Origin: Candidatus Campbellbacteria bacterium RIFOXYC2_FULL_35_25
GTDB taxonomy: Bacteria > Patescibacteriota > Minisyncoccia > Phycocordibacterales > UBA12079
Length of the DNA: 64,000 bases
Direction of reading: 5' to 3'
Assembly: GCA_001774495.1 (NCBI GenBank)
Contig: MFAE01000002.1
Location: forward strand, 42,372 to 106,371
Shown here one piece after another: positions 11,654 through 60,144 of the stretch (within the stretch, counting starts at the first letter, position 1; the number at the start of each line of letters is the position of its first letter). The notes below the pieces were generated by a model, which did no database searches, was not told the origin of the DNA, and saw only the letters and a list, made by a program, of their open reading frames with translations. A program made the translations under genes and the position numbers.

Positions 11654-13408
11654 ATGGATAACAATTTTGAGGACAAAACTACAGAGATTCTTAATAGCAG
11701 AATAAATGCTATTCAGTCGAAACTTGAAGAGCACGAAAGAAAAATTAATCTTTTGTTAGAAGAAAAGACCGAAAAATTTTCTAATAATGCTTGGGTTAAG
11801 GGTGCCACGACTACTCCTAGTGGAGCTAGTTCATTAGGAGAAGCTCCTTTGCCGCCATCTCCTACAGATAATCAAAAAACAGGGCCATCTGGTTTTGAAA
11901 GATTTGCTAACTGGTTAAAAGAAGATTGGCTTATAAAATTAGGGGCGCTTATTTTGCTGATAGGTCTTGGGTGGCTCGTGTCTTATGCTTTTCTAAATAA
12001 TTGGATTGGTCCTATGGGGCGTATTTCAATGGGTATTATTCTGGGTGTGGCATTGCTAACTTTCGGTTGGTGGAGAATGAACGAATACAAACATCAGGGG
12101 GGAATTTTTTTGGTGGTTGGTTCAACGGCTATCTTACTAACTATTTTTGCTGCCAGAGAAATATACGGATTCTTTACCCCAACTACCGCCCTCATTATGA
12201 TGTTTTTGAGTACCGCGTTTGTTGCACTAAACAGTGTAAAACACGATAGTCGTTCTCTCGCTATTTCAAGTTTACTTTTAGCAGGCATCGCACCGCTCTT
12301 AACCAATCCCACAGGGCTAACTGATATTGCATGGTTCTCTTATCTCTTTGTGATTACTGCCGGGGCCATATGGGTCGTTTCTCTTACTGGTTGGCGTATC
12401 CTAACATCTTTTTCTTTAATAATGATTGCTTTGTACAGCACTCCTCATTTTAGTTGTTCGTTGAATGAAATCGTTTTGCTTTTTGCCTATGCTTTTGTTG
12501 GAATGTTTTTTATTGTCAACATGCTGGGTTTCTTAAAATTAAAAGCCAAAACTATTGGCCCAGATTTATTTACAGCAGCTGGTAGTGGGTTATTTCTTAT
12601 TGCTTGGATTTTGGCGGCAGCTCAAGATGAATGGAAAAGTCTTATTATGGTGGTTTGGGCATTGGTATTTTCAGTCGGAGCATTTATGGTATTTAAAATT
12701 ACACAGAGAAAAGGTCCTTTCTTTGTCTATCTGGCAGTCAGCCTAGGATTACTAGCCGCCGCTACAGCAGCAGAACTTCAAGGAGCTGCCCTCACGATTG
12801 CTTACACTATTGAGAGCGGACTAGTTTCCATTCTTGCTTATCAAGTTTTACGTAATGTTGATATTGTTAAAAAAACAGCCCTATTATTGATAGGCCCAAT
12901 CTTGTTATCTTTCCAAAGTATGGACGCGTATTCTTGGAGAGAGGGTGTTTTTAATGAAGATTTCTTCGTTCTTCTTATTTTAGCCGTTACTTTGCTTGCA
13001 TCAGGATTTTTCTTCTTAGGCGAAAAAAAGGAAGGAGAAAAAGATTCAATAAATATTGGTGCAATTTTGTTCACCATAGGCACAATTTTTATTTACATTC
13101 TTATCTGGTTATCAACTCACGCTCTTTCTTTTATCGAAAATGATACCGCCACAACAGTCTCTCTGTTTATCTTTACGGTTATAGGAATCGGTACTTATAT
13201 TAAGGGGAAGACAAATGATGTAAAAAGTTTTCGCATCTACGGAGGTTTACTACTATTTTTTGTTGTCGGGAGACTTCTTTTAGTTGATGTTTGGCACATG
13301 GGATTAGGTGAAAGAATTTTTACCTTCCTACTTATCGGAGCGCTTCTTATGAGTACCGCTTTTCTTGGTCGCAAGAAAAAGGAACAAATTAATCTTAATA
13401 ATAATTAA
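11654..13408 (+). CDS. large polytopic membrane protein of unknown function
   Basis: 584 aa with more than 12 predicted TM helices after an N-terminal coiled-coil. Internal ORF-track entries (12001-12249, 12094-12312, 12555-12746, 12841-13083) are overlapping artifacts. Confidence 0.55.
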   Translation: MDNNFEDKTTEILNSRINAIQSKLEEHERKINLLLEEKTEKFSNNAWVKGATTTPSGASSLGEAPLPPSPTDNQKTGPSGFERFANWLKEDWLIKLGALILLIGLGWLVSYAFLNNWIGPMGRISMGIILGVALLTFGWWRMNEYKHQGGIFLVVGSTAILLTIFAAREIYGFFTPTTALIMMFLSTAFVALNSVKHDSRSLAISSLLLAGIAPLLTNPTGLTDIAWFSYLFVITAGAIWVVSLTGWRILTSFSLIMIALYSTPHFSCSLNEIVLLFAYAFVGMFFIVNMLGFLKLKAKTIGPDLFTAAGSGLFLIAWILAAAQDEWKSLIMVVWALVFSVGAFMVFKITQRKGPFFVYLAVSLGLLAAATAAELQGAALTIAYTIESGLVSILAYQVLRNVDIVKKTALLLIGPILLSFQSMDAYSWREGVFNEDFFVLLILAVTLLASGFFFLGEKKEGEKDSINIGAILFTIGTIFIYILIWLSTHALSFIENDTATTVSLFIFTVIGIGTYIKGKTNDVKSFRIYGGLLLFFVVGRLLLVDVWHMGLGERIFTFLLIGALLMSTAFLGRKKKEQINLNNN

Positions 13409-26642: not shown

Positions 26643-26762
26643 AAAGTTTATAAAGGTATAAAGTTAAAAGTGACGGATTTTGCTTCGCAAAATCCGTCAA
26701 TAAAACTCAAAAACCTTCAACTTTCAACTTTAAAAACTTTATAAACTTTTAACTATATTTTT

Positions 26763-42427: not shown

Positions 42428-42502
42428 AAAAAGACGACGAATGGCTCCGCCATTCGTCGTCTTTCGTCTTTGCGAGGGCTTTGTCCCGAAGCAATCTAGA
42501 AA
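42428..42502. repeat. family B repeat copy (AAAAGACGACGAATGGCTCCGCCATTCGTCGTCTTTCGTCTTTGCGAGGGCTTTGTCCCGAAGCAATCTAGAA)
   Basis: Near-identical to 33418-33512. Partial copies at 15417-15445, 16975-17015 and 45413-45455. Confidence 0.7.
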
Positions 42503-42844: not shown

Positions 42845-43361
42845 GCATTCTCCTTATGAATTGAAAGCAAAATTTGCGAAAAAATCATTGAAAGGACTAT
42901 AATTACTGGCAACACTATACTCAAAACATCTGTTTTTGTCAATCATGTAAACGTAATTAAACCCATAGGCCTTACAAACACTCGACTTCTTCTAATCATT
43001 TAACAATGTTATTTGTTAGGATTATTTTGGTATAAACTAAGAAGCGAGAGTTCTTCAAAGGAACGAAAAAAATTGCTTGCCTTTTTTTTATATATCTATA
43101 TAATAGTCTCTATTCTGATAAAGATAGTTTCTTTGAAAACTTAATAGTTTTTGAATTGCTTTAGGCAATTCAAAGCAACATGCATCTGATTTGTTTAAAA
43201 ACAAATCAAAAAAACGACAAGTCCAAAAGTTTTGAGTGGCGAATTTTATTTCGTAATTCAAAACCGAAAAAAACAAAAGAAGATATTATTTTTCTCTTGT
43301 TTCGTTTCATTTCAATTTTTCTAATACAGATTTATTCTGTTTACTAGGAAACTTTATTTTA

Positions 43362-44930
43362 GAGTTTGATCCTAGCTCAGGATGAACGCTGGCTGTGTGG
43401 ATAAGGCATGCAAGTCGAGTGGGTTTAGACCCACGGCGAACGAGGTAGTAACACGTAGGAATCTCCCCCAAAGTCAAGCATAACCCATCGAAAGGTGGGA
43501 TAATTCTTGATAGTCCCGCAAGGGTAAAGATTTATCGCTTTGGGAAGAGCCTGCGAAGTATCAGCTTGTTGGTAGGGTAATGGCCTACCAAGGCAATGAC
43601 GCTTAGGGGAGGTGAGAGCCTGGCCCCCACCGATGGCACTGAGACACGGGCCATACTCCTACGGGAGGCCGCAGTCGAGAATCTTCCGCAATGGACGAAA
43701 GTCTGACGGAGCGACACAGCGTGATCGATGAAGCTCTTCGGAGTGTAAAGGTCTTTTATGAGTGAAGAAGTTTATTGACATTAGCTCATGAATAAGGGGT
43801 TGCTAAACTCGTGCCAGCAGCAGCGGTAATACGAGTGCCCCGAGCGTTATCCGGAATTATTGGGCGTAAAGCGTGTGTAGGCGGTTTTGTTAGTCTTTTG
43901 TTAAAGCCCTGGGCTCAACCCAGGATCTGCAAAAGAAACGGCAAAACTAGAGAGTGTGAGGGGTGAATGGAACTCATAGTGTAGGGGTGAAATCCGTTGA
44001 TATTATGGGGAACACCAAAAGCGAAGGCAGTTCACTGGCACATTTCTGACGCTGAGACACGAAAGCGTGGGTAGCGAATGGGATTAGATACCCCAGTAGT
44101 CCACGCCGTAAACGATGTTCTCTAGCTTTTTGGAGTATCGACCCTCTGAGAGGCGCAGCTAACGCGTTAAGAGAACCGCCTGGGTAGTACGAGCGCAAGC
44201 TTAAAACTCAAAGGAATAGACGGGGACTTGCACAAGCGGTGGATCACGTGGTTTAATTCGATGATACGCGAAGAACCTTACCAAGACTAGACATCTAGCT
44301 TATGTTTTTCTAGAAATAGAAAATCCTAACGGCTAGACAGGTGATGCATGGCCGTCGTCAGTTCGTGGCTTGAGCTGTTCCCTTAAGTGGGGAAACGAAC
44401 GCAACCCTTATCGTCTGTTACAAGTGTCAGGCGAGACTGCCCAGCCTAGTGCACATGAATGTGCAGTTTGTAGTTGGTAGTTAGTAGTTGATAGTAAAAA
44501 ATTTGCAAAGCAAATTTTTTCTCTAAAAACTAAAAACTATAGACTAAAAACTGTATTCACTTCGTGAATACTAGGCTGGGAGGAAGGCGAGGATGACGCC
44601 AGGTCAGCATGTCCCTTGATGTCTTGGGCTACACACATGATACAATGGCTGTGACAATAGGTCGCGACGGGGTAACCCTGAGCTAATCCTTCAAACACAG
44701 CCCCAGTTCGGATTGAGGTCTGCAACTCGACCTCATGAAGTTGGAATCGCTAGTAATCGCTGGTCAGCACACAGCGGTGAATATGTTCTCAAGTCTTGTA
44801 CTCACCGCCCGTCAACTCAAGGAAGTCGGGAGTGCCCGATGGCCGTCTTTATGACGGACTAAGGTAAGTTCGATAACAGGGAGTAAGTCGTAACAAGGCA
44901 CGGGTAGCGGAAGCTGTTCGTGGATTATTT
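43362..44930 (+). rRNA. rrs: 16S rRNA (3' boundary uncertain; see findings)
   Basis: Starts AGAGTTTGATCCTAGCTCAGGATGAACGCTGGC. Conserved blocks follow (GTGCCAGCAGCAGCGGTAATAC, GGATTAGATACCC, GCATGGCCGTCGTCAG, CCGCCCGTCA, AAGTCGTAACAAGG). Confidence 0.85.
44441..44580 (+). other. ~140-nt expansion/intervening sequence in 16S helix 40-41 region
   Basis: CCCAGCCTAGTG ... CACTAGGCTGGG stem replaces the short CCAGUGAUAAACUGG hairpin between GACTGCC and GAGGAAGG. Confidence 0.6.
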
Positions 44931-45465
44931 CAAATTGAAACTGTTTATTTCCTACGGGAAATAGACTTAAATGGTTGGAACTGAATTTTCTAGCTTGCTA
45001 GAAAATTCAGGAGACAATGATATTGCATCTCAAATCTATATCCGTTATCCCAGATATGCGTTACTGGGAAATGAAGCGAAACAAAAGAAAGGTTGTACCT
45101 TCTTAGTTTTTAGTTGATAGTTTTTAGTTTTTAGAAAATTCTAAATTTTATCTTTGTCGTTTGATGCATGTAAATATAAGAAATTAAAAAACTCTATGAA
45201 GTTTATTAGCTTGCTAATAAACTTCATAGAGTTTTTTAAATAATCCTAAAATTAGCGTACTTTGGCGTCGCGATTCATAAAATATCAGTCGTCGTATAGA
45301 AAATACGCCTCCTTCTCTTTTATTCTCGCTCCACCAAATTACATCTAATTTTAAAATTATTTTTTAATTGCGAAAAACGTAACATTTTGTTATATTTTAG
45401 AGGTTAATTTTGAGGAAAAATCGTCTTTGCGAGGCGAAGCCGAAGCAATCCAGAATAAATAATAT

Positions 45466-45665
45466 GCGAGTGTAGCTCAGGTGGACTTTTTTCTGAAAGA
45501 AAAAAGCAACGGCTAAAGTGTTTAGGCTTTTTATCCGGTTTCTGCCAAAGGCAGAAAATCGCCGAAGTGAGTCCCTAAGGGCGAACAGGCGATAGGAGGA
45601 TAGAGCGGTTCGACAGTCTTCCAGATTGTCTCACCTGATAACGACGAGGGACCTCGTCATTGTAA
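45466..45665 (+). pseudogene. degenerate partial copy of tRNA-Ile (5' acceptor/D-arm and anticodon-arm remnants with ~150 nt of insertions, no T-arm)
   Basis: GCGAGTGTAGCTCAGGTGGA is identical to the tRNA-Ile 5' end. The later GATAGAGCG and CTGATAACGACGAGG resemble D-stem and anticodon-arm segments. Confidence 0.45.
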
Positions 45666-45695
45666 TTATTTGAAAGTTTAATATAGTAAACACAG

Positions 45696-45769
45696 GCGAG
45701 TGTAGCTCAGGTGGTTAGAGCGCGTCACTGATAATGACGAGGTCGTAGGTTCGAGTCCTACCATTCGCA
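45696..45769 (+). tRNA. tRNA-Ile (anticodon GAT)
   Basis: GCGAGTGTAGCTCAGGTGGTTAGAGCGCGTCACTGATAATGACGAGGTCGTAGGTTCGAGTCCTACCATTCGCA. Cloverleaf with 7-bp acceptor stem (one G:U), GTTCGAGTC T-loop and anticodon loop CTGATAA. Confidence 0.85.
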
Positions 45770-46200
45770 CAATTTTAAAACACCAAATCTTTGATTTGGT
45801 GTTTTAAAATTGTGCGAATGGAGTAAAGTGCCTGCGCACTTTACGTTAGGACGAGAAAGGCGGAGACATGTTTCTGTAGCGAAGTGAAAGAAACAGTCGA
45901 GCCGTGACGACAAGTTCTTAATAAAAATGAGTCCGTAGGATGAAATTTTTATTAAGAAACTTGAAGTCGAGTCCTACCATTCGCACAAAAATATAATAAA
46001 ACCAGAGCAATTCTCTGGTTTTATTATATTTTTGTAGCAGAATGGTATGACTCGAACGGCGGAGGCGGTATGCAAGATAAATTTTTTCGTAAAAAAATTT
46101 AGGCTTGTCGCCGAGCCGCGTTCAGCGATACTTATTATTTCTGAGTGCGAAGCACAAAGAAAATAATTAGTAATCGCGGGACGAGTCCTACCATATTGCA
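45770..46200. repeat. array of structured modules each ending in a copy of the tRNA-Ile 3' end (GTCGAGTCCTACCATTCGCAC at ~45968-45990; GACGAGTCCTACCAT at ~46180-46195; inverted copy TTGTGCGAATGG at 45810-45821)
   Basis: Direct and inverted copies of the T-arm/acceptor 3' half. Long hairpin GTTCTTAATAAAAAT...ATTTTTATTAAGAAC. Modules are homologous to those at the tRNA-Gln locus. Confidence 0.55.
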
Positions 46201-46261
46201 TAGTTTATCGTTTTTTATTTTCTGATATAATTTAAAATATAATAATTAACCTTTTATAATT

Positions 46262-49578: not shown

Positions 49579-49760
49579 AAAATTGAAAAAAAACGAGAGT
49601 AACGTATAATGTACTAGTGAGTAGATAGTAATAAGTAGTGAGTAGTAAGAAAAGAATTTTCGCTTCGCGAAAATTCTTTAATGAAAAAATTTGCTTCGCA
49701 AATTTTTTACTATAGACTATATACTATCAACTACAAACTAATTTTTTTATAAAAAATTCA

Positions 49761-51385: not shown

Positions 51386-52065
51386 ATAGCATTGAACCCC
51401 CTTCTTTGCAGAAGGGGGTTTAACCATTTGGCCATATGGCCTTTTTCTCTCTGTACGATTTAAAGAAGTGAGCTGAACATAAAAATAACCCGGTAAAAAC
51501 GAAACCCGCAATCCATGGATGCTTAAAGAAAAGCAACAGTCCTCCTAATCCAAGGGATAGGACAAGGAAAACAAGTCCAAAATTTAGGTCTCCTTTGCAG
51601 TCAATCATTCTCGCCCTCCTCGTCTGACTCATCTGCTTCGACGAGACTTTTGTTCTCGTAAGAAGAAACAGCTAATATTCCTCCAATAAAAATTATAGCG
51701 ATTGAGGCGCCTCTATCCTTTTCAGAGTCTTCTTCGCCGAAAAATATGCCGGATAATCCGATTAAAATGAAAACGATTCCCAGTAAGACTTTGCCATTTA
51801 TTTTATATTTCCCCATCCTTTTTCTCCTCACTACTTGTTTTTGTTGAGAAAACTGTTTCTAATCAGAGTATAACAGGATTTTCTGTTGATTCAAACAAAA
51901 AAGAGATATTCATACAAGTGAGCAAGAAAATACTTGATTTTTTGTCCGTAAAAAGCTTTAATCATAGTTATATTATAAGATCGTTTAATCTCGTAGCAGA
52001 TCATTTCGCCGGATCGTCGAAGTGGTGGAAATGAAAAGCAAACTGGTTTAGTATTAATATAATAT

Positions 52066-52136
52066 TGCCGGATCGTCTAATGGTAGGACTGCGGTTTCTG
52101 GTACCGCCAATCTAGGTTCGAGTCCTAGTCCGGCAG
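52066..52136 (+). tRNA. tRNA-Gln (anticodon CTG)
   Basis: TGCCGGATCGTCTAATGGTAGGACTGCGGTTTCTGGTACCGCCAATCTAGGTTCGAGTCCTAGTCCGGCAG. U1:A72 pair, anticodon loop TTCTGGT, T-loop TTCGAGT. Confidence 0.65.
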
Positions 52137-52575
52137 CAACAAATAAAAACAACAGCTTTTAGCTGTTGTTTTTATTTGTTTTGATGCCGAGACTAGCAAG
52201 GTACCTGCGTACATTGCGTAGGATTCGAACAGGCGGAGGCTTGTCGCACGGAGCGAAGCGAGTACGACAGCCGAGCCGAGCCTACGAACACTTAGGCTTT
52301 TGGAGTGCGAAGCACGAACAAAAGACTTAGTGATTCGGAGGTCGAGTCCTAGTCCGGCAGCATAAGATCGTTAGACCCTGAGTGATGAGCTTAGGGTCTT
52401 ATTATTTTACCTGACGGACTAGGACTCGAAAAGAGCGAAATATATTTTTTCGTAATGAAGTGAAGAAAAAAATTTGAGCGACGTGACGACGAGTTCTTAA
52501 CAAAAATGAGTCCACAGGATGAAATTTTTGTTTAGAACTGGAAGTCGAGTCCTAGTCCGGCAGCTTTGGAAAGAA
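52137..52575. repeat. array of modules each ending in a copy of the tRNA-Gln 3' end (TCGAGTCCTAGTCCGGCAG at ~52342-52368 and ~52548-52570; inverted copy at ~52410-52435); an upstream 5' partial copy GCCGGATCGTCGAAGTGGTGG lies at ~51997-52020
   Basis: Modules share long stretches with the tRNA-Ile locus array (GTGACGACNAGTTCTTAANAAAAATGAGTCCNNAGGATGAAATTTTT...GAAGTCGAGTCCTA; GGCGGAGGC...TTAGGCTT...GAGTGCGAAGCAC). Confidence 0.55.
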
Positions 52576-52646
52576 ATCAAAATGATTGGTGTGGGGGGGG
52601 GTGAAAATCCTAGTCTCATAACATCCCCCTATGATATAATTTCAAC

Positions 52647-59769: not shown

Positions 59770-59815
59770 ATTTAAAAACCTTGTTACGTAGCATGCTACG
59801 TAACAAGGTTTTTTA
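59770..59815. repeat. family P palindrome copy 3 (AAAAACCTTGTTACGTAGCATGCTACGTAACAAGGTTTTT)
   Basis: 40-bp perfect palindrome with the same 22-bp core as 15433-15500. Confidence 0.8.
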
Positions 59816-60062
59816 TTTTTGGAGCAGAATTTGGTCTTCCATTTCTAAATGGAATTGATAGTGATTCGGTCATAAATATTTTTCCTGACGGAAAAATTTT
59901 GCGACCCCGCCTCGCGGTGCTCGCCTTGTGTTTGCAAAGCAAACACAAACTCGCACATCACTCTGGCTTTCGAATCCTACACATAAGGCAAGCAGGTGCC
60001 TTATTCTCGGCGACACTAAATATTAAAAACCCTAAGCTTTTTGCTCAGGGTTTTTAATATAG

Positions 60063-60144
60063 TGCGCCGGGTAGGATTCGAACCTACGAAGGCTAAGCCA
60101 GCAGATTTACAGTCTGCTCTCGTTGACCGCTTGAGTACCGACGC
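60063..60144 (-). tRNA. tRNA-Tyr (anticodon GTA), class II with long variable arm
   Basis: Reverse complement: GCGTCGGTACTCAAGCGGTCAACGAGAGCAGACTGTAAATCTGCTGGCTTAGCCTTCGTAGGTTCGAATCCTACCCGGCGCA. Anticodon loop CTGTAAA, T-loop TTCGAAT. Confidence 0.8.

Follow-up and report, generated by a model that had tools for sequence, protein, structure and literature searches.

Structured tandem modules ending in local tRNA 3′ sequence at several tRNA loci of a Campbellbacteria genome: an architectural analogue of the Escherichia coli RtT repeats

INTRODUCTION

To our knowledge, the repeats of the Escherichia coli tyrT locus and their RtT RNA, familiar for decades, have no accepted origin or function and have stayed unexplained since 1978. 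The tyrT repeats have a 178-bp period, and each unit contains an inverted copy (19/22 positions), GC-rich hairpins and a direct copy (23/23 identity) of the last ~19–23 nt of tRNA-Tyr; the T-loop is where the direct fragment is broken, and the closing stem is seen both in the repeats and in the Rfam consensus structure (RF00391). E. coli genomes carry between 1 and 10 copies. RtT RNAs have been described as released from tRNA-operon transcripts, and have been detected on Northern blots, beside tRNA-Asn and tRNA-Lys genes, in Actinobacillus (PMC4986893).

Here, we analyse a 64-kb stretch of DNA from a groundwater member of the Campbellbacteria (the window), in which a first-pass annotation had seen a tRNA-targeting integrative mini-element without a match to any described family. 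Two further systems bear on such a locus. CIMEs are ORF-less derivatives of integrative elements in tRNA genes, for which tandem accretion is known. Homing endonucleases are also found with tRNA genes, as for SegB of phage T4, a GIY-YIG homing enzyme in a tRNA gene cluster; small GIY-YIG genes are abundant in CPR genomes.

RESULTS

Two tandem units follow tRNA-Gln(CTG)

The tRNA-Gln(CTG) gene lies at 52066–52137 on the plus strand, has no encoded CCA and is recognized by ARAGORN and by the Rfam tRNA model (55.6 bits). Its 3′-terminal 19–20 nt recur downstream as two direct copies, one inverted copy and one interrupted inverted copy. In particular, TCGAGTCCTAGTCCGGCAG lies inside the gene at 52118–52136, with direct copies at 52342–52360 and 52545–52563 and an inverted copy with one mismatch at 52411–52429, giving four matches at the locus versus 0.00 expected from shuffles. 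These are the three extra downstream copies, one of them inverted, that the first-pass annotation had reported; it had overlooked the second inverted copy (52186–52230), which is interrupted by a hairpin with a CCTGC loop. It had also correctly recorded a partial 5′ copy of the gene (GCCGGATCGTCGAAGTGGTGG, 52008–52028, plus strand), identical to the tRNA 5′ end at 18/21 positions and located 38 nt upstream. Related genomes have comparable 5′ fragments upstream of their tRNAs.

The array begins with a terminator-like hairpin (T1, 52138–52180, plus strand), an inverted repeat with 20-bp perfect arms and a T-rich tail that separates the tRNA from the first unit. Unit Gln1 (52185–52361, plus strand; fold of −75.7 kcal/mol, z = −5.2; 125 bits with our covariance model R1) is composed of the inverted tRNA 3′-end copy at 52186–52230, split by the CCUGC-loop hairpin, followed by stem P2 (GGCGGAG-hairpin-CGAGCC, ~52232–52277), stem P3 (~52280–52340) and the direct tRNA 3′-end copy (52342–52361). 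It is followed by an intrinsic-terminator-like hairpin (T2, 52362–52410, plus strand; stem-loop at 52373–52399, then a T tail), and T2 and the second unit travel together as a single repeat. Unit Gln2 (52411–52564, plus strand; fold of −61.2 kcal/mol, z = −9.1; 144 bits with R1) has its inverted copy at 52411–52430, its P2 region at ~52435–52484, a P3 formed by the GTTCTTAAC...GTTTAGAAC hairpin (~52485–52546) and its direct copy at 52545–52563. The direct copies are spaced 224 and 203 nt apart, start to start. The array is 99.3–100% identical in nine independent metagenome assemblies and is therefore not an assembly artefact.

The tRNA-Ile and tRNA-Tyr loci

ARAGORN finds only three tRNAs in the window, and no tmRNA. 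The tRNA-Ile(GAT) gene (45696–45770, plus strand; ARAGORN and Rfam) has the same layout as the Gln locus, with direct copies at 45967 and 46182 (spacings of 216 and 214 nt), inverted copies at 45810 and 46040, and an array that is likewise invariant in nine assemblies. The hairpin that precedes its first unit (45761–45821) is a perfect palindrome with 29-nt arms that takes in the tRNA-Ile 3′ end. Unit Ile1 (45810–45988, plus strand; z = −9.3) contains an inverted acceptor copy, a CCUGC hairpin, P2, P3 and a direct copy at 45967–45988; Ile1 and Gln2 are 89% identical over 74 nt (E = 2.6e-17). The distal unit Ile2 (46037–46203, plus strand; z = −7.3), which is homologous to Gln1, has two closing arms that have both diverged from the tRNA sequence yet still pair. 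Identity to the tRNA extends over 20–25 nt in the proximal units and over 20/24 aligned positions, with one gap, in Ile2.

Upstream of tRNA-Ile lies a pseudo-copy of its 5′ two-thirds (45466–45661, plus strand), the D-loop of which holds a structured insertion of ~125 nt; the hairpin at the end of the pseudo-copy contains tRNA positions 38–49 in antisense. Its D-loop module is homologous to modules at the tRNA-Tyr and tRNA-Thr genes of relatives, with flanks that are local in each of the Ile, Tyr and Thr fragments. On the minus strand, tRNA-Tyr (60062–60144) is followed by a decayed unit (Tyr1, 59826–60018) with an inverted acceptor and T-arm copy that carries a CCUGC hairpin, and with a degenerate direct arm that is partly complementary to the inverted arm. 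Terminator-like hairpins lie on either side of Tyr1 (60020–60060 and 59774–59813).

A three-way junction with covariation and strand bias

A module spans ~200 bp: a terminator-like hairpin and then a non-coding element of 150–175 nt, which is predicted to fold on the tRNA-sense strand as a three-way junction of P1, P2 and P3. In the closing stem P1 (17–20 bp), the inverted copy of the tRNA 3′ end pairs with the direct one. The 3′ strand of P1 matches the adjacent tRNA from C56 in the T-loop to the discriminator plus 1 nt, and the 5′ strand is complementary to it. P2 takes the form GGCGGAG-hairpin-CGAGCC. The long, AT-rich hairpin P3 lies between GTTC and CGAGTCC, the place of the T-loop in the tRNA 3′-fragment copy. 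All four Gln and Ile units of the window share the fold (z-scores of −5 to −9). In Ile2 and in the decayed Tyr1, arms that are unlike the tRNA still pair.

Covariation and strand bias mark the module bodies as structured elements rather than decayed coding DNA. Both sides have changed in 12 of the 17 base pairs of P3, giving a covariation score of 0.484, compared to 0.229 ± 0.026 for shuffles and at most 0.20 for slid alignments. The CCUGC-loop hairpin has unrelated stems in each of the three units Gln1, Ile1 and Tyr1. Moreover, the sense strand folds better than the antisense strand in 10/10 units, by 2.9–12.8 kcal/mol; on this bias and the ARAGORN results, a reverse-strand or permuted tRNA was rejected. 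A retroelement primer-binding site was also rejected, as the inverted copy has no TGG to pair with CCA. Rfam searches at the gathering threshold and at E ≤ 5 returned generic hairpin noise and no group I or group II intron, tmRNA or Y-RNA. A look at the sequence preceding the units revealed nothing that resembles a promoter. GCGAAGC, a stable DNA mini-hairpin, is enriched (10 occurrences versus 2.9 expected); it is not specific to the units, because ordinary terminator hairpins elsewhere in the window are topped by it too.

One module family at several tRNA genes

The family occupies tRNA-Ile, tRNA-Gln(CTG) and tRNA-Gln(TTG), and in decayed form tRNA-Tyr. The locus-specific part is mainly the acceptor-derived 8–11 nt, and P2/P3 bodies are common to different tRNA loci, with the homology between loci stopping at conserved T-loop and T-stem sequence. 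Both proposals of the first-pass annotation on this point hold, namely that the Gln and Ile bodies are homologous (their alignment is not low-complexity) and that one family sits at two or more tRNA genes, each copy ending in local tRNA 3′ sequence. GAGTGCGAAGCACRAA, GGCGGAGRC and the AAAATGAGTCCNNAGGATGAAATTTT motif are confined to the Gln and Ile loci, and R1 finds family members solely at tRNA loci in the 288 kb scanned.

T2 and unit 2 of the Gln(CTG) locus recur at Gln(TTG) with ~96% identity. At the latter locus, the acceptor sequence left of T2 is TTG-type, the unit's inverted arm is CTG-type, and the direct arm of the distal unit has no acceptor part. The GlnT1 unit is ~99% identical between L035, which carries the ungapped Gln(TTG) locus, and the complete genome CP011215, although MurC identity between these two Campbellbacteria lineages is only 67%. 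From these alignments, we conclude that modules do move or exchange between loci and lineages. Unit turnover between related genomes is rapid. For example, the Tyr unit is missing from L040 and L043. A related tRNA-Thr module with a 61-nt direct repeat is present in L043 and absent in L044, a difference that a deletion between the repeats or an assembly collapse could also produce. Further, a 43-nt hairpin occupies the P3 apex in L022, and a second copy occurs in L017.

A motif scan of genome contigs gave one match, in CP011215.1, and a scan of the same kind of contigs for the P3 loop motif gave none. The metagenome scan gave eight loci, a count that includes chance matches: L023 and L025 lie within a DNA-methyltransferase gene, and L028 is probably a third such chance match. 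L009 was not accepted as proof of linkage between the two Gln loci, being a scaffold with an N gap, and L035 was used instead.

Comparison with the E. coli RtT repeats

The first-pass annotation knew of no described family with these features; the tyrT/RtT repeats have the same anatomy. RtT and CPR units are tandem, share the strand of the tRNA gene that they immediately follow, and have a period of ~180–225 bp. Each finishes with the last ~19–25 nt of the tRNA, from the T-loop onward, and opens with an inverted copy of that segment, so that a closing stem forms; both hold small GC-rich hairpins, including GAG-C-GAA(A)-G-CGA motifs, and both vary in copy number. In both, the direct tRNA fragment is broken at the T-loop, and the E. 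coli insert sits at the same position as P3. In contrast to RtT, an intrinsic-terminator hairpin stands in front of every CPR unit, CCA is not encoded, P3 is long and AT-rich, and the units occur at several tRNA species with locus-specific ends; their Patescibacteria hosts are very distant from Gammaproteobacteria.

As a positive control, the Rfam RtT model gives four matches of 133–137 bits in E. coli. On the window's Gln and Ile arrays (51950–52620 and 45380–46260) it gives no match at its gathering threshold (45 bits) or at E ≤ 5, and reciprocally R1 gives no match to E. coli RtT at E ≤ 1. With neither covariance model recognizing the other family, only architecture links the two, and the CPR modules are an analogue of RtT, not a demonstrable homologue. 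The shared GCGAAGC was discarded as proof of kinship, since it also caps ordinary terminators in this genome.

Recombinases and endonucleases

No integrase, transposase or any other ORF was found inside the arrays, and neither the scanned ORFs of the window nor the annotated genes of the related loci that were retrieved include a Phage_integrase or another recombinase; the label 'integrative' in the first-pass annotation was therefore not borne out. Three scans of viral contigs for ORF-bearing relatives returned 0 matches. No GIY-YIG gene was found in the window, and its units contain no endonuclease ORF. Solely at a related locus (L040/L041) is an endonuclease ORF found inside an element: a tRNA-Thr copy in L040 carries a cassette with an 82-aa GIY-YIG ORF and 14-bp terminal inverted repeats, exactly in the T-loop after G53. 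An intact tRNA-Thr lies upstream of this copy, and the same trailer and terminator are repeated. The cassette has no sequence relation to the window's P3; it is one lead on mobilisation. In addition, L026 has a GIY-YIG gene immediately 3′ of its tRNA-Gln unit.

DISCUSSION

The reading that we favour, to which we give an even chance of being right, is that the units are RtT-type tRNA-trailer modules. Alongside the observed anatomy, homology, fold and strand bias, we infer their transcription, their processing and a recombination route. The modules would be non-autonomous passengers of tRNA operons that multiply, are lost, and cross between loci and genomes by recombination through tRNA-derived repeats and the conserved sequences of the T- and D-loops, a process that an endonuclease cutting such loops may at times start. 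Read-through transcripts from the tRNA promoter would fold, locking a spare tRNA 3′ end into P1, a stem that would resemble the acceptor/T-stem helix, discriminator included. A stable small RNA could then be freed by RNase P, RNase Z and the CCA-adding enzyme, in line with what has been reported for E. coli RtT; the sense-strand folding bias lends such a release indirect support. Three results speak against this reading: the lack of a promoter-like site before the units, the failure of the covariance models, and the missing acceptor part in the direct arm of the distal Gln(TTG) unit. Read-through may be rare, because a strong terminator-like hairpin precedes each unit, and the rapid turnover of units, with the Tyr unit absent from two relatives, argues against a conserved locus-specific function. 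That both P1 arms gain the local acceptor sequence is not readily explained by recombination alone.

An unlikely alternative is that the units are miniature CIME-like elements, each a minimal attP moved by a tyrosine integrase acting in trans with crossover in the tRNA T-loop or 3′ end, so that a new 3′ end and terminator displace the old ones and successive insertions build the array. Like tRNA-gene integrative elements, the units lie in an array at one tRNA gene between direct repeats that correspond to the classical identity block of tRNA genes (T-loop to gene end plus a few nt), and some CIMEs also have no recombination genes. The repeat unit of terminator plus element is expected if the element supplies a new tRNA end; the distal units are more diverged, hence older, than the proximal ones; near-identical units occur in divergent genomes; and L043 and L044 resemble filled and empty sites, although the empty state could also stem from assembly collapse or simple deletion between repeats. 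Against this, neither a cognate integrase nor a full-length ORF-bearing relative with the same ends turned up in the window, the fetched loci or the viral contigs. Unlike CIMEs, the units measure only ~200 bp, fold in a conserved way as a single strand and repeat the att-like block as a 20-nt inverted copy; double-stranded attP arms require neither a covarying three-way junction nor such an inverted core copy. Moreover, the mixed TTG and CTG acceptors at the Gln(TTG) locus and its acceptor-less last direct arm fit a T-loop crossover poorly.

Somewhat less probable is that the modules are relics of homing, in which a GIY-YIG enzyme cuts T-loop or D-loop DNA, break repair copies a cassette and a restoring tRNA duplicate from the donor, and P3-like hairpins are what remains after gene loss. 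The L040 cassette beside its intact tRNA-Thr resembles tRNA-associated homing-endonuclease genes, and the L026 gene, the shared T-loop position of P3 and the RtT insert, the D-loop module with its local flanks, and the end of inter-locus homology at conserved T-loop/T-stem sequence all point the same way. However, this single clear ORF-bearing case is unrelated in sequence to the window's P3, the window's modules are ORF-less, and no GIY-YIG gene was found in the window; GIY-YIG adjacency could be chance, because such small genes are abundant in CPR genomes; and simple homing does not predict an inverted tRNA copy.

We consider it improbable that the arrays are inert by-products of fold-back or template-switch errors at tRNA and terminator palindromes, together with unequal crossing-over, with no function or dedicated mobility. 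The perfect palindrome at 45761–45821 that includes a tRNA end, the variable E. coli copy number and the rapid turnover between relatives agree with such an origin, but it leaves unexplained the homologous P2/P3 bodies at different tRNA species, the 99% identical units in divergent genomes, and the compensatory changes and conserved loop motifs (CCUGC, GAG-hairpin-CGA). Least credible of all are folded single-strand recombination sites akin to integron attC or the CTX-phage attP hairpin, with an ssDNA fold that mimics the tRNA-gene end and is joined to it by a host recombinase into cassette-like arrays: the layout by a fixed chromosomal site (core site, cargo, then inverse core and core around a structured region), the one-strand structure and the enriched GCGAAGC are suggestive, but neither an integrase, whether of integron type or another, nor a GTTRRRY-type core was found, the 'cargo' is a mere 45-nt hairpin without coding content, GCGAAGC is not specific to the units, and single-stranded DNA intermediates, of which there is no sign, are assumed.

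The modules also resemble REP, BIME, REPIN and MITE sequences in being short, non-coding, hairpin-forming and intergenic, in forming arrays of alternating orientation, and in nesting small GC-rich hairpins (the 43-nt hairpin of L022 and L017). They differ in that their terminal inverted repeats are copies of the adjacent tRNA and vary by locus, no target-site duplication flanks them, and there are no dispersed copies away from tRNA genes in 288 kb.

With an RtT architecture present in a CPR bacterium, and at several tRNA species, what was a curiosity of one organism can be treated as a comparative problem; the CPR case brings ends specific to each locus, a conserved structure and signs that transfer was recent. 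Taken together, the two cases suggest a general rule, in which a structured insert at the T-loop goes with one inverted and one direct tRNA 3′ fragment. Candidate enzymes follow as well: for processing, RNase P, RNase Z and the CCA-adding enzyme, and for mobilisation, GIY-YIG. A broader and distinctly tentative possibility is that these are a new class of mobile modules at conserved tRNA loops (T-loop, D-loop and anticodon loop), always with a restoring tRNA duplicate, some with a GIY-YIG gene and most being ORF-less structured derivatives that cross tRNA species via universal loop sequences; they would be hosted by Campbellbacteria and perhaps by bacteria generally, with E. coli RtT as a fossil of the same process.

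Such repeats break and mis-join metagenome assemblies at tRNA genes, and in the annotation of CPR genomes they can mask real tRNA genes or pass for them. One locus set aside (L033), in which the T-arm of tRNA-Tyr runs into a foreign acceptor and tRNA-Thr, is a probable assembly chimera. L035 is a candidate part of the window's own genome, coming from the same five samples and having a similar GC content.

Structure of the tRNA-Gln array

The tRNA-Gln(CTG) gene (52066-52137, plus strand) is one of three tRNA genes in the window, together with tRNA-Ile (45696-45770, plus strand) and tRNA-Tyr (60062-60144, minus strand). Downstream of it lie, in order, T1, a hairpin with 20-bp arms; the unit Gln1 (52185-52361); T2, a terminator-like hairpin; and the unit Gln2 (52411-52564). 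The repeats of the tRNA-Gln 3′ end reported by the first-pass annotation are real: the 19-mer TCGAGTCCTAGTCCGGCAG inside the tRNA has direct copies at 52342 and 52545 and an inverted copy, with one mismatch, at 52411 (4 matches versus 0 expected), and the reported upstream partial copy of the 5′ end is 21 nt long and lies at 52008-52028. A second inverted copy of the 3′ end, at 52186-52230, had been missed because a CCTGC-loop hairpin splits it. The array is present in 9 independent assemblies at 99.3-100% identity.

Every unit opens with the tRNA 3′ end in reverse complement and closes with a direct copy running exactly from T-loop C56 to the discriminator +1 base, so that, as originally described, the units end in their local tRNA's own 3′ sequence. 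Gln1, Gln2 and the two tRNA-Ile units, Ile1 and Ile2, share one fold (z-scores of -5 to -9), composed of a 17-20 bp closing stem (P1), a P2 of the form GGCGGAG-hairpin-CGAGCC, and a long AT-rich hairpin (P3) whose apex is GAG-minihairpin-CGAA. In most units, P3 is placed between GTTC and CGAGTCC, which is the expected T-loop position of a tRNA 3′-fragment copy; read this way, each unit would be a tRNA 3′ fragment whose T-loop holds a structured insert, with the fragment's own complement in front. The CCUGC-loop hairpin is built on three unrelated stems, in Gln1, Ile1 and a decayed unit at tRNA-Tyr. In the latter unit and in the distal Ile2, both P1 arms have diverged from the tRNA with their pairing retained.

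Sharing of units between loci and genomes

Pairwise alignment confirms the homology of the Gln and Ile arrays. Over 74 nt, Ile1 and Gln2 show 89% identity and a single compensatory change in P3, while GGCGGAGGC, TTAGGCTT and GAGTGCGAAGCAC are common to Gln1 and Ile2; what differs from locus to locus is mostly the 8-11 nt derived from the acceptor in each P1 arm. A covariance model trained on seven units (R1) matched exclusively at tRNA loci in the 288 kb searched, including a unit outside the training set in the related locus L017.

A tRNA-Gln(TTG) locus (L035), which shares the window's five samples and GC content, has an array of its own, whose first unit ends in a TTG-type acceptor. Its second unit is a copy of T2 plus Gln2, about 96% identical and differing by 5 substitutions and one 1-base indel over about 180 nt, and has a direct arm that ends early, at CGAGTCCTAG; since T2 and Gln2 recur together, the repeat unit is 'terminator + element'. 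Leaving aside a 43-nt hairpin nested within the apex of P3, the first TTG unit and one in the complete genome CP011215.1 share about 99% identity. CP011215.1 matches L017 at 98% identity, and between L017 and the window MurC identity is only 67%. The window itself derives from Candidatus Campbellbacteria bacterium RIFOXYC2_FULL_35_25, its ThrRS being identical to OGD67686.1; its closest MurC relatives are other Campbellbacteria (67-69%). Set against the MurC divergence, the near-identity of the units points to a recent transfer. Arrays at orthologous loci vary strongly among relatives.

One CP011215.1 array (L022 2150-2520; L029 1480-1845) is without an intact tRNA, and consists of a degenerate 3′ end, a spacer, a tRNA-Gln 3′ half from the anticodon loop, a terminator and a unit. 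L017 shares the right flank, has an intact tRNA and has lost the sequence between two GGTTC repeats; a second copy of the GC-rich 43-nt hairpin lies at L017 6765-6808.

Comparison with E. coli RtT repeats

The first-pass annotation could match the arrays to no described family, but the RtT repeats of E. coli have the same architecture. On NC_000913, the Rfam RtT model finds four units, of which three form a tandem array behind tyrV with a 178-bp period; genomes of E. coli carry 1-10. Each unit has an inverted copy of the tRNA-Tyr T-arm and acceptor, GGGGAAGGATGAGAAGCTTCGA (19/22 complementary), GC-rich hairpins with GAGCGAAGCGA-type motifs, and a direct copy of the last ~19-23 nt of the tRNA. 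This direct fragment reads CTTCGACCAAGGTTCGACT[~70-nt insert]AATCCTTCCCCCACCACCA and is therefore broken in the T-loop. The Rfam model does not match the CPR units, nor does R1 match E. coli RtT, and we thus class the CPR units as an analogue and new variant outside the RtT family. RtT RNAs are described as being released from tRNA-operon transcripts, and in Actinobacillus RtT-family RNAs are reported to be expressed beside tRNA-Asn and tRNA-Lys genes (PMC4986893); in Erwinia, the positions of RtT copies vary by strain (PMC7542023).

Ordinary terminator-like hairpins in the window (26672-26698 and 49650-49705) are capped by GCTTCGC/GCGAAGC, a 7-mer that occurs 10 times versus 2.9 expected.

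Proposed mechanisms of spread

We give roughly an even chance to the units being non-autonomous, RtT-like, tRNA-end-capped structured modules, spread by recombination and probably processed as tRNA-like RNAs. Such modules would ride in tRNA operons, spread by a putative recombination at tRNA-derived repeats, and yield predicted tRNA-like RNAs, probably by processing. The earlier interpretation, a tRNA-targeting integrative element, holds insofar as one module family occupies several tRNA loci; its 'integrative' part lacks support, as neither those window ORFs that were scanned with Pfam nor the precomputed gene annotations available for the fetched loci yielded an integrase, transposase or reverse transcriptase. 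We consider it unlikely that an integrase moves the modules in trans. A 275-nt module behind tRNA-Thr occurs in filled and empty states with identical flanks (L043 1-400 versus L044 270-480). It is bounded by a 61-nt direct repeat of tRNA positions 22-74 plus 8 nt, and the empty state could stem from a deletion between the repeats or an assembly collapse.

Somewhat less probable still is homing driven by a GIY-YIG enzyme, for which the related locus L040 provides a lead. Here (487-1170), tRNA-Thr precedes its trailer and terminator, an inverted D-arm copy, and another copy of the tRNA whose D-loop holds a ~110-nt module. Exactly in its T-loop, this second copy also carries a GIY-YIG ORF of 82 aa flanked by 14-bp inverted repeats CCCAGCACTCAATT; the first trailer and terminator are repeated afterwards. 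In the same region of L041, an interrupted tRNA-Thr(TGT) is the only one seen, which could reflect deletion, assembly collapse or a T-loop intervening sequence. In the window, a pseudo-copy of the 5′ two-thirds of tRNA-Ile (45466-45661) lies upstream of the gene, between a promoter-like site (45368-45396) and a terminator-like hairpin (45643-45658). The D-loop module of L040 (~640-745) is homologous to the ~125-nt structured insertion in the D-loop of this pseudo-copy and to a module upstream of tRNA-Tyr in L043 (8844-8976; 78% over 86 nt, E 1.6e-15); the insertion also has a homologue in a tRNA-Thr fragment of L043 (~170-300).

From the D-loop and T-loop cases, modules are thus found in tRNA fragments at the conserved loops, with flanks that are local. 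The pattern would suit our preferred reading, in which modules spread through the conserved loop sequences and a loop-cutting endonuclease may at times start the process.

That the modules are inert by-products is improbable, and we put very little weight on a folded single-strand recombination site.

Together with the unrelated CCUGC-loop stems and the retained P1 pairing, two results indicate that the fold is meaningful. Across an alignment of seven units, both sides have changed with pairing kept in 15/29 pairs, 12 of the 17 P3 pairs among them, and the covariation score is 0.484, compared to 0.229 ± 0.026 for shuffles and at most 0.20 when partners are slid. The sense (tRNA) strand folds better than the antisense by 2.9-12.8 kcal/mol in 10/10 units.

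Other tRNA-linked arrangements

L040 also has a (GGTAGTT)n tandem repeat directly upstream of tRNA-Thr (415-486). The short motif CGTCTTTGCGAGG-(mini-hairpin)-CCGAAGCAATCYAGAA, which appears to be a short repeat family of its own, occurs at 42463-42500 and 45421-45458 and at L032 ~12120-12158, preceded by a hairpin at 42433-42462 and in L032. At tRNA-Ile in L016 (1809-2117; also L017-L019), an exact 5′ half (to anticodon-loop position 37), 85 nt, the intact tRNA, 65 nt and a 3′-part copy are nested, and the two spacers hold a perfect 26-nt inverted repeat GTGAAAATAAAATTTTTGAAAATAAT. Judged from sequence, the RNA would present an intact tRNA at the tip of a long stem within a second, split tRNA-like molecule.

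The tRNA-Tyr gene lies between clpB and mnmA in the window, in L040 (9253-9335) and in L043 (9027-9109); its strand is minus in the window but plus in the other two, which indicates a local inversion. No unit was found downstream of it in L040 or L043; L043 has a 5′ pseudo-copy upstream. In L033 (1-250), tRNA-Tyr equals the window's up to the T-stem and continues into a foreign acceptor strand that encodes CCA; tRNA-Thr(TGT) comes next. The join probably arose by chimeric assembly at the conserved T-arm, or possibly by real recombination.

The rRNA operon is split, with 40 kb separating the 16S gene (43354-44935) from the 23S and 5S genes (1-2657; 5S at 2551-2657). The 23S match ends at 608 (model position 2632 of 2925), past which lies a LAGLIDADG endonuclease ORF (1143-1631); the gene is probably interrupted by an intron or insertion.
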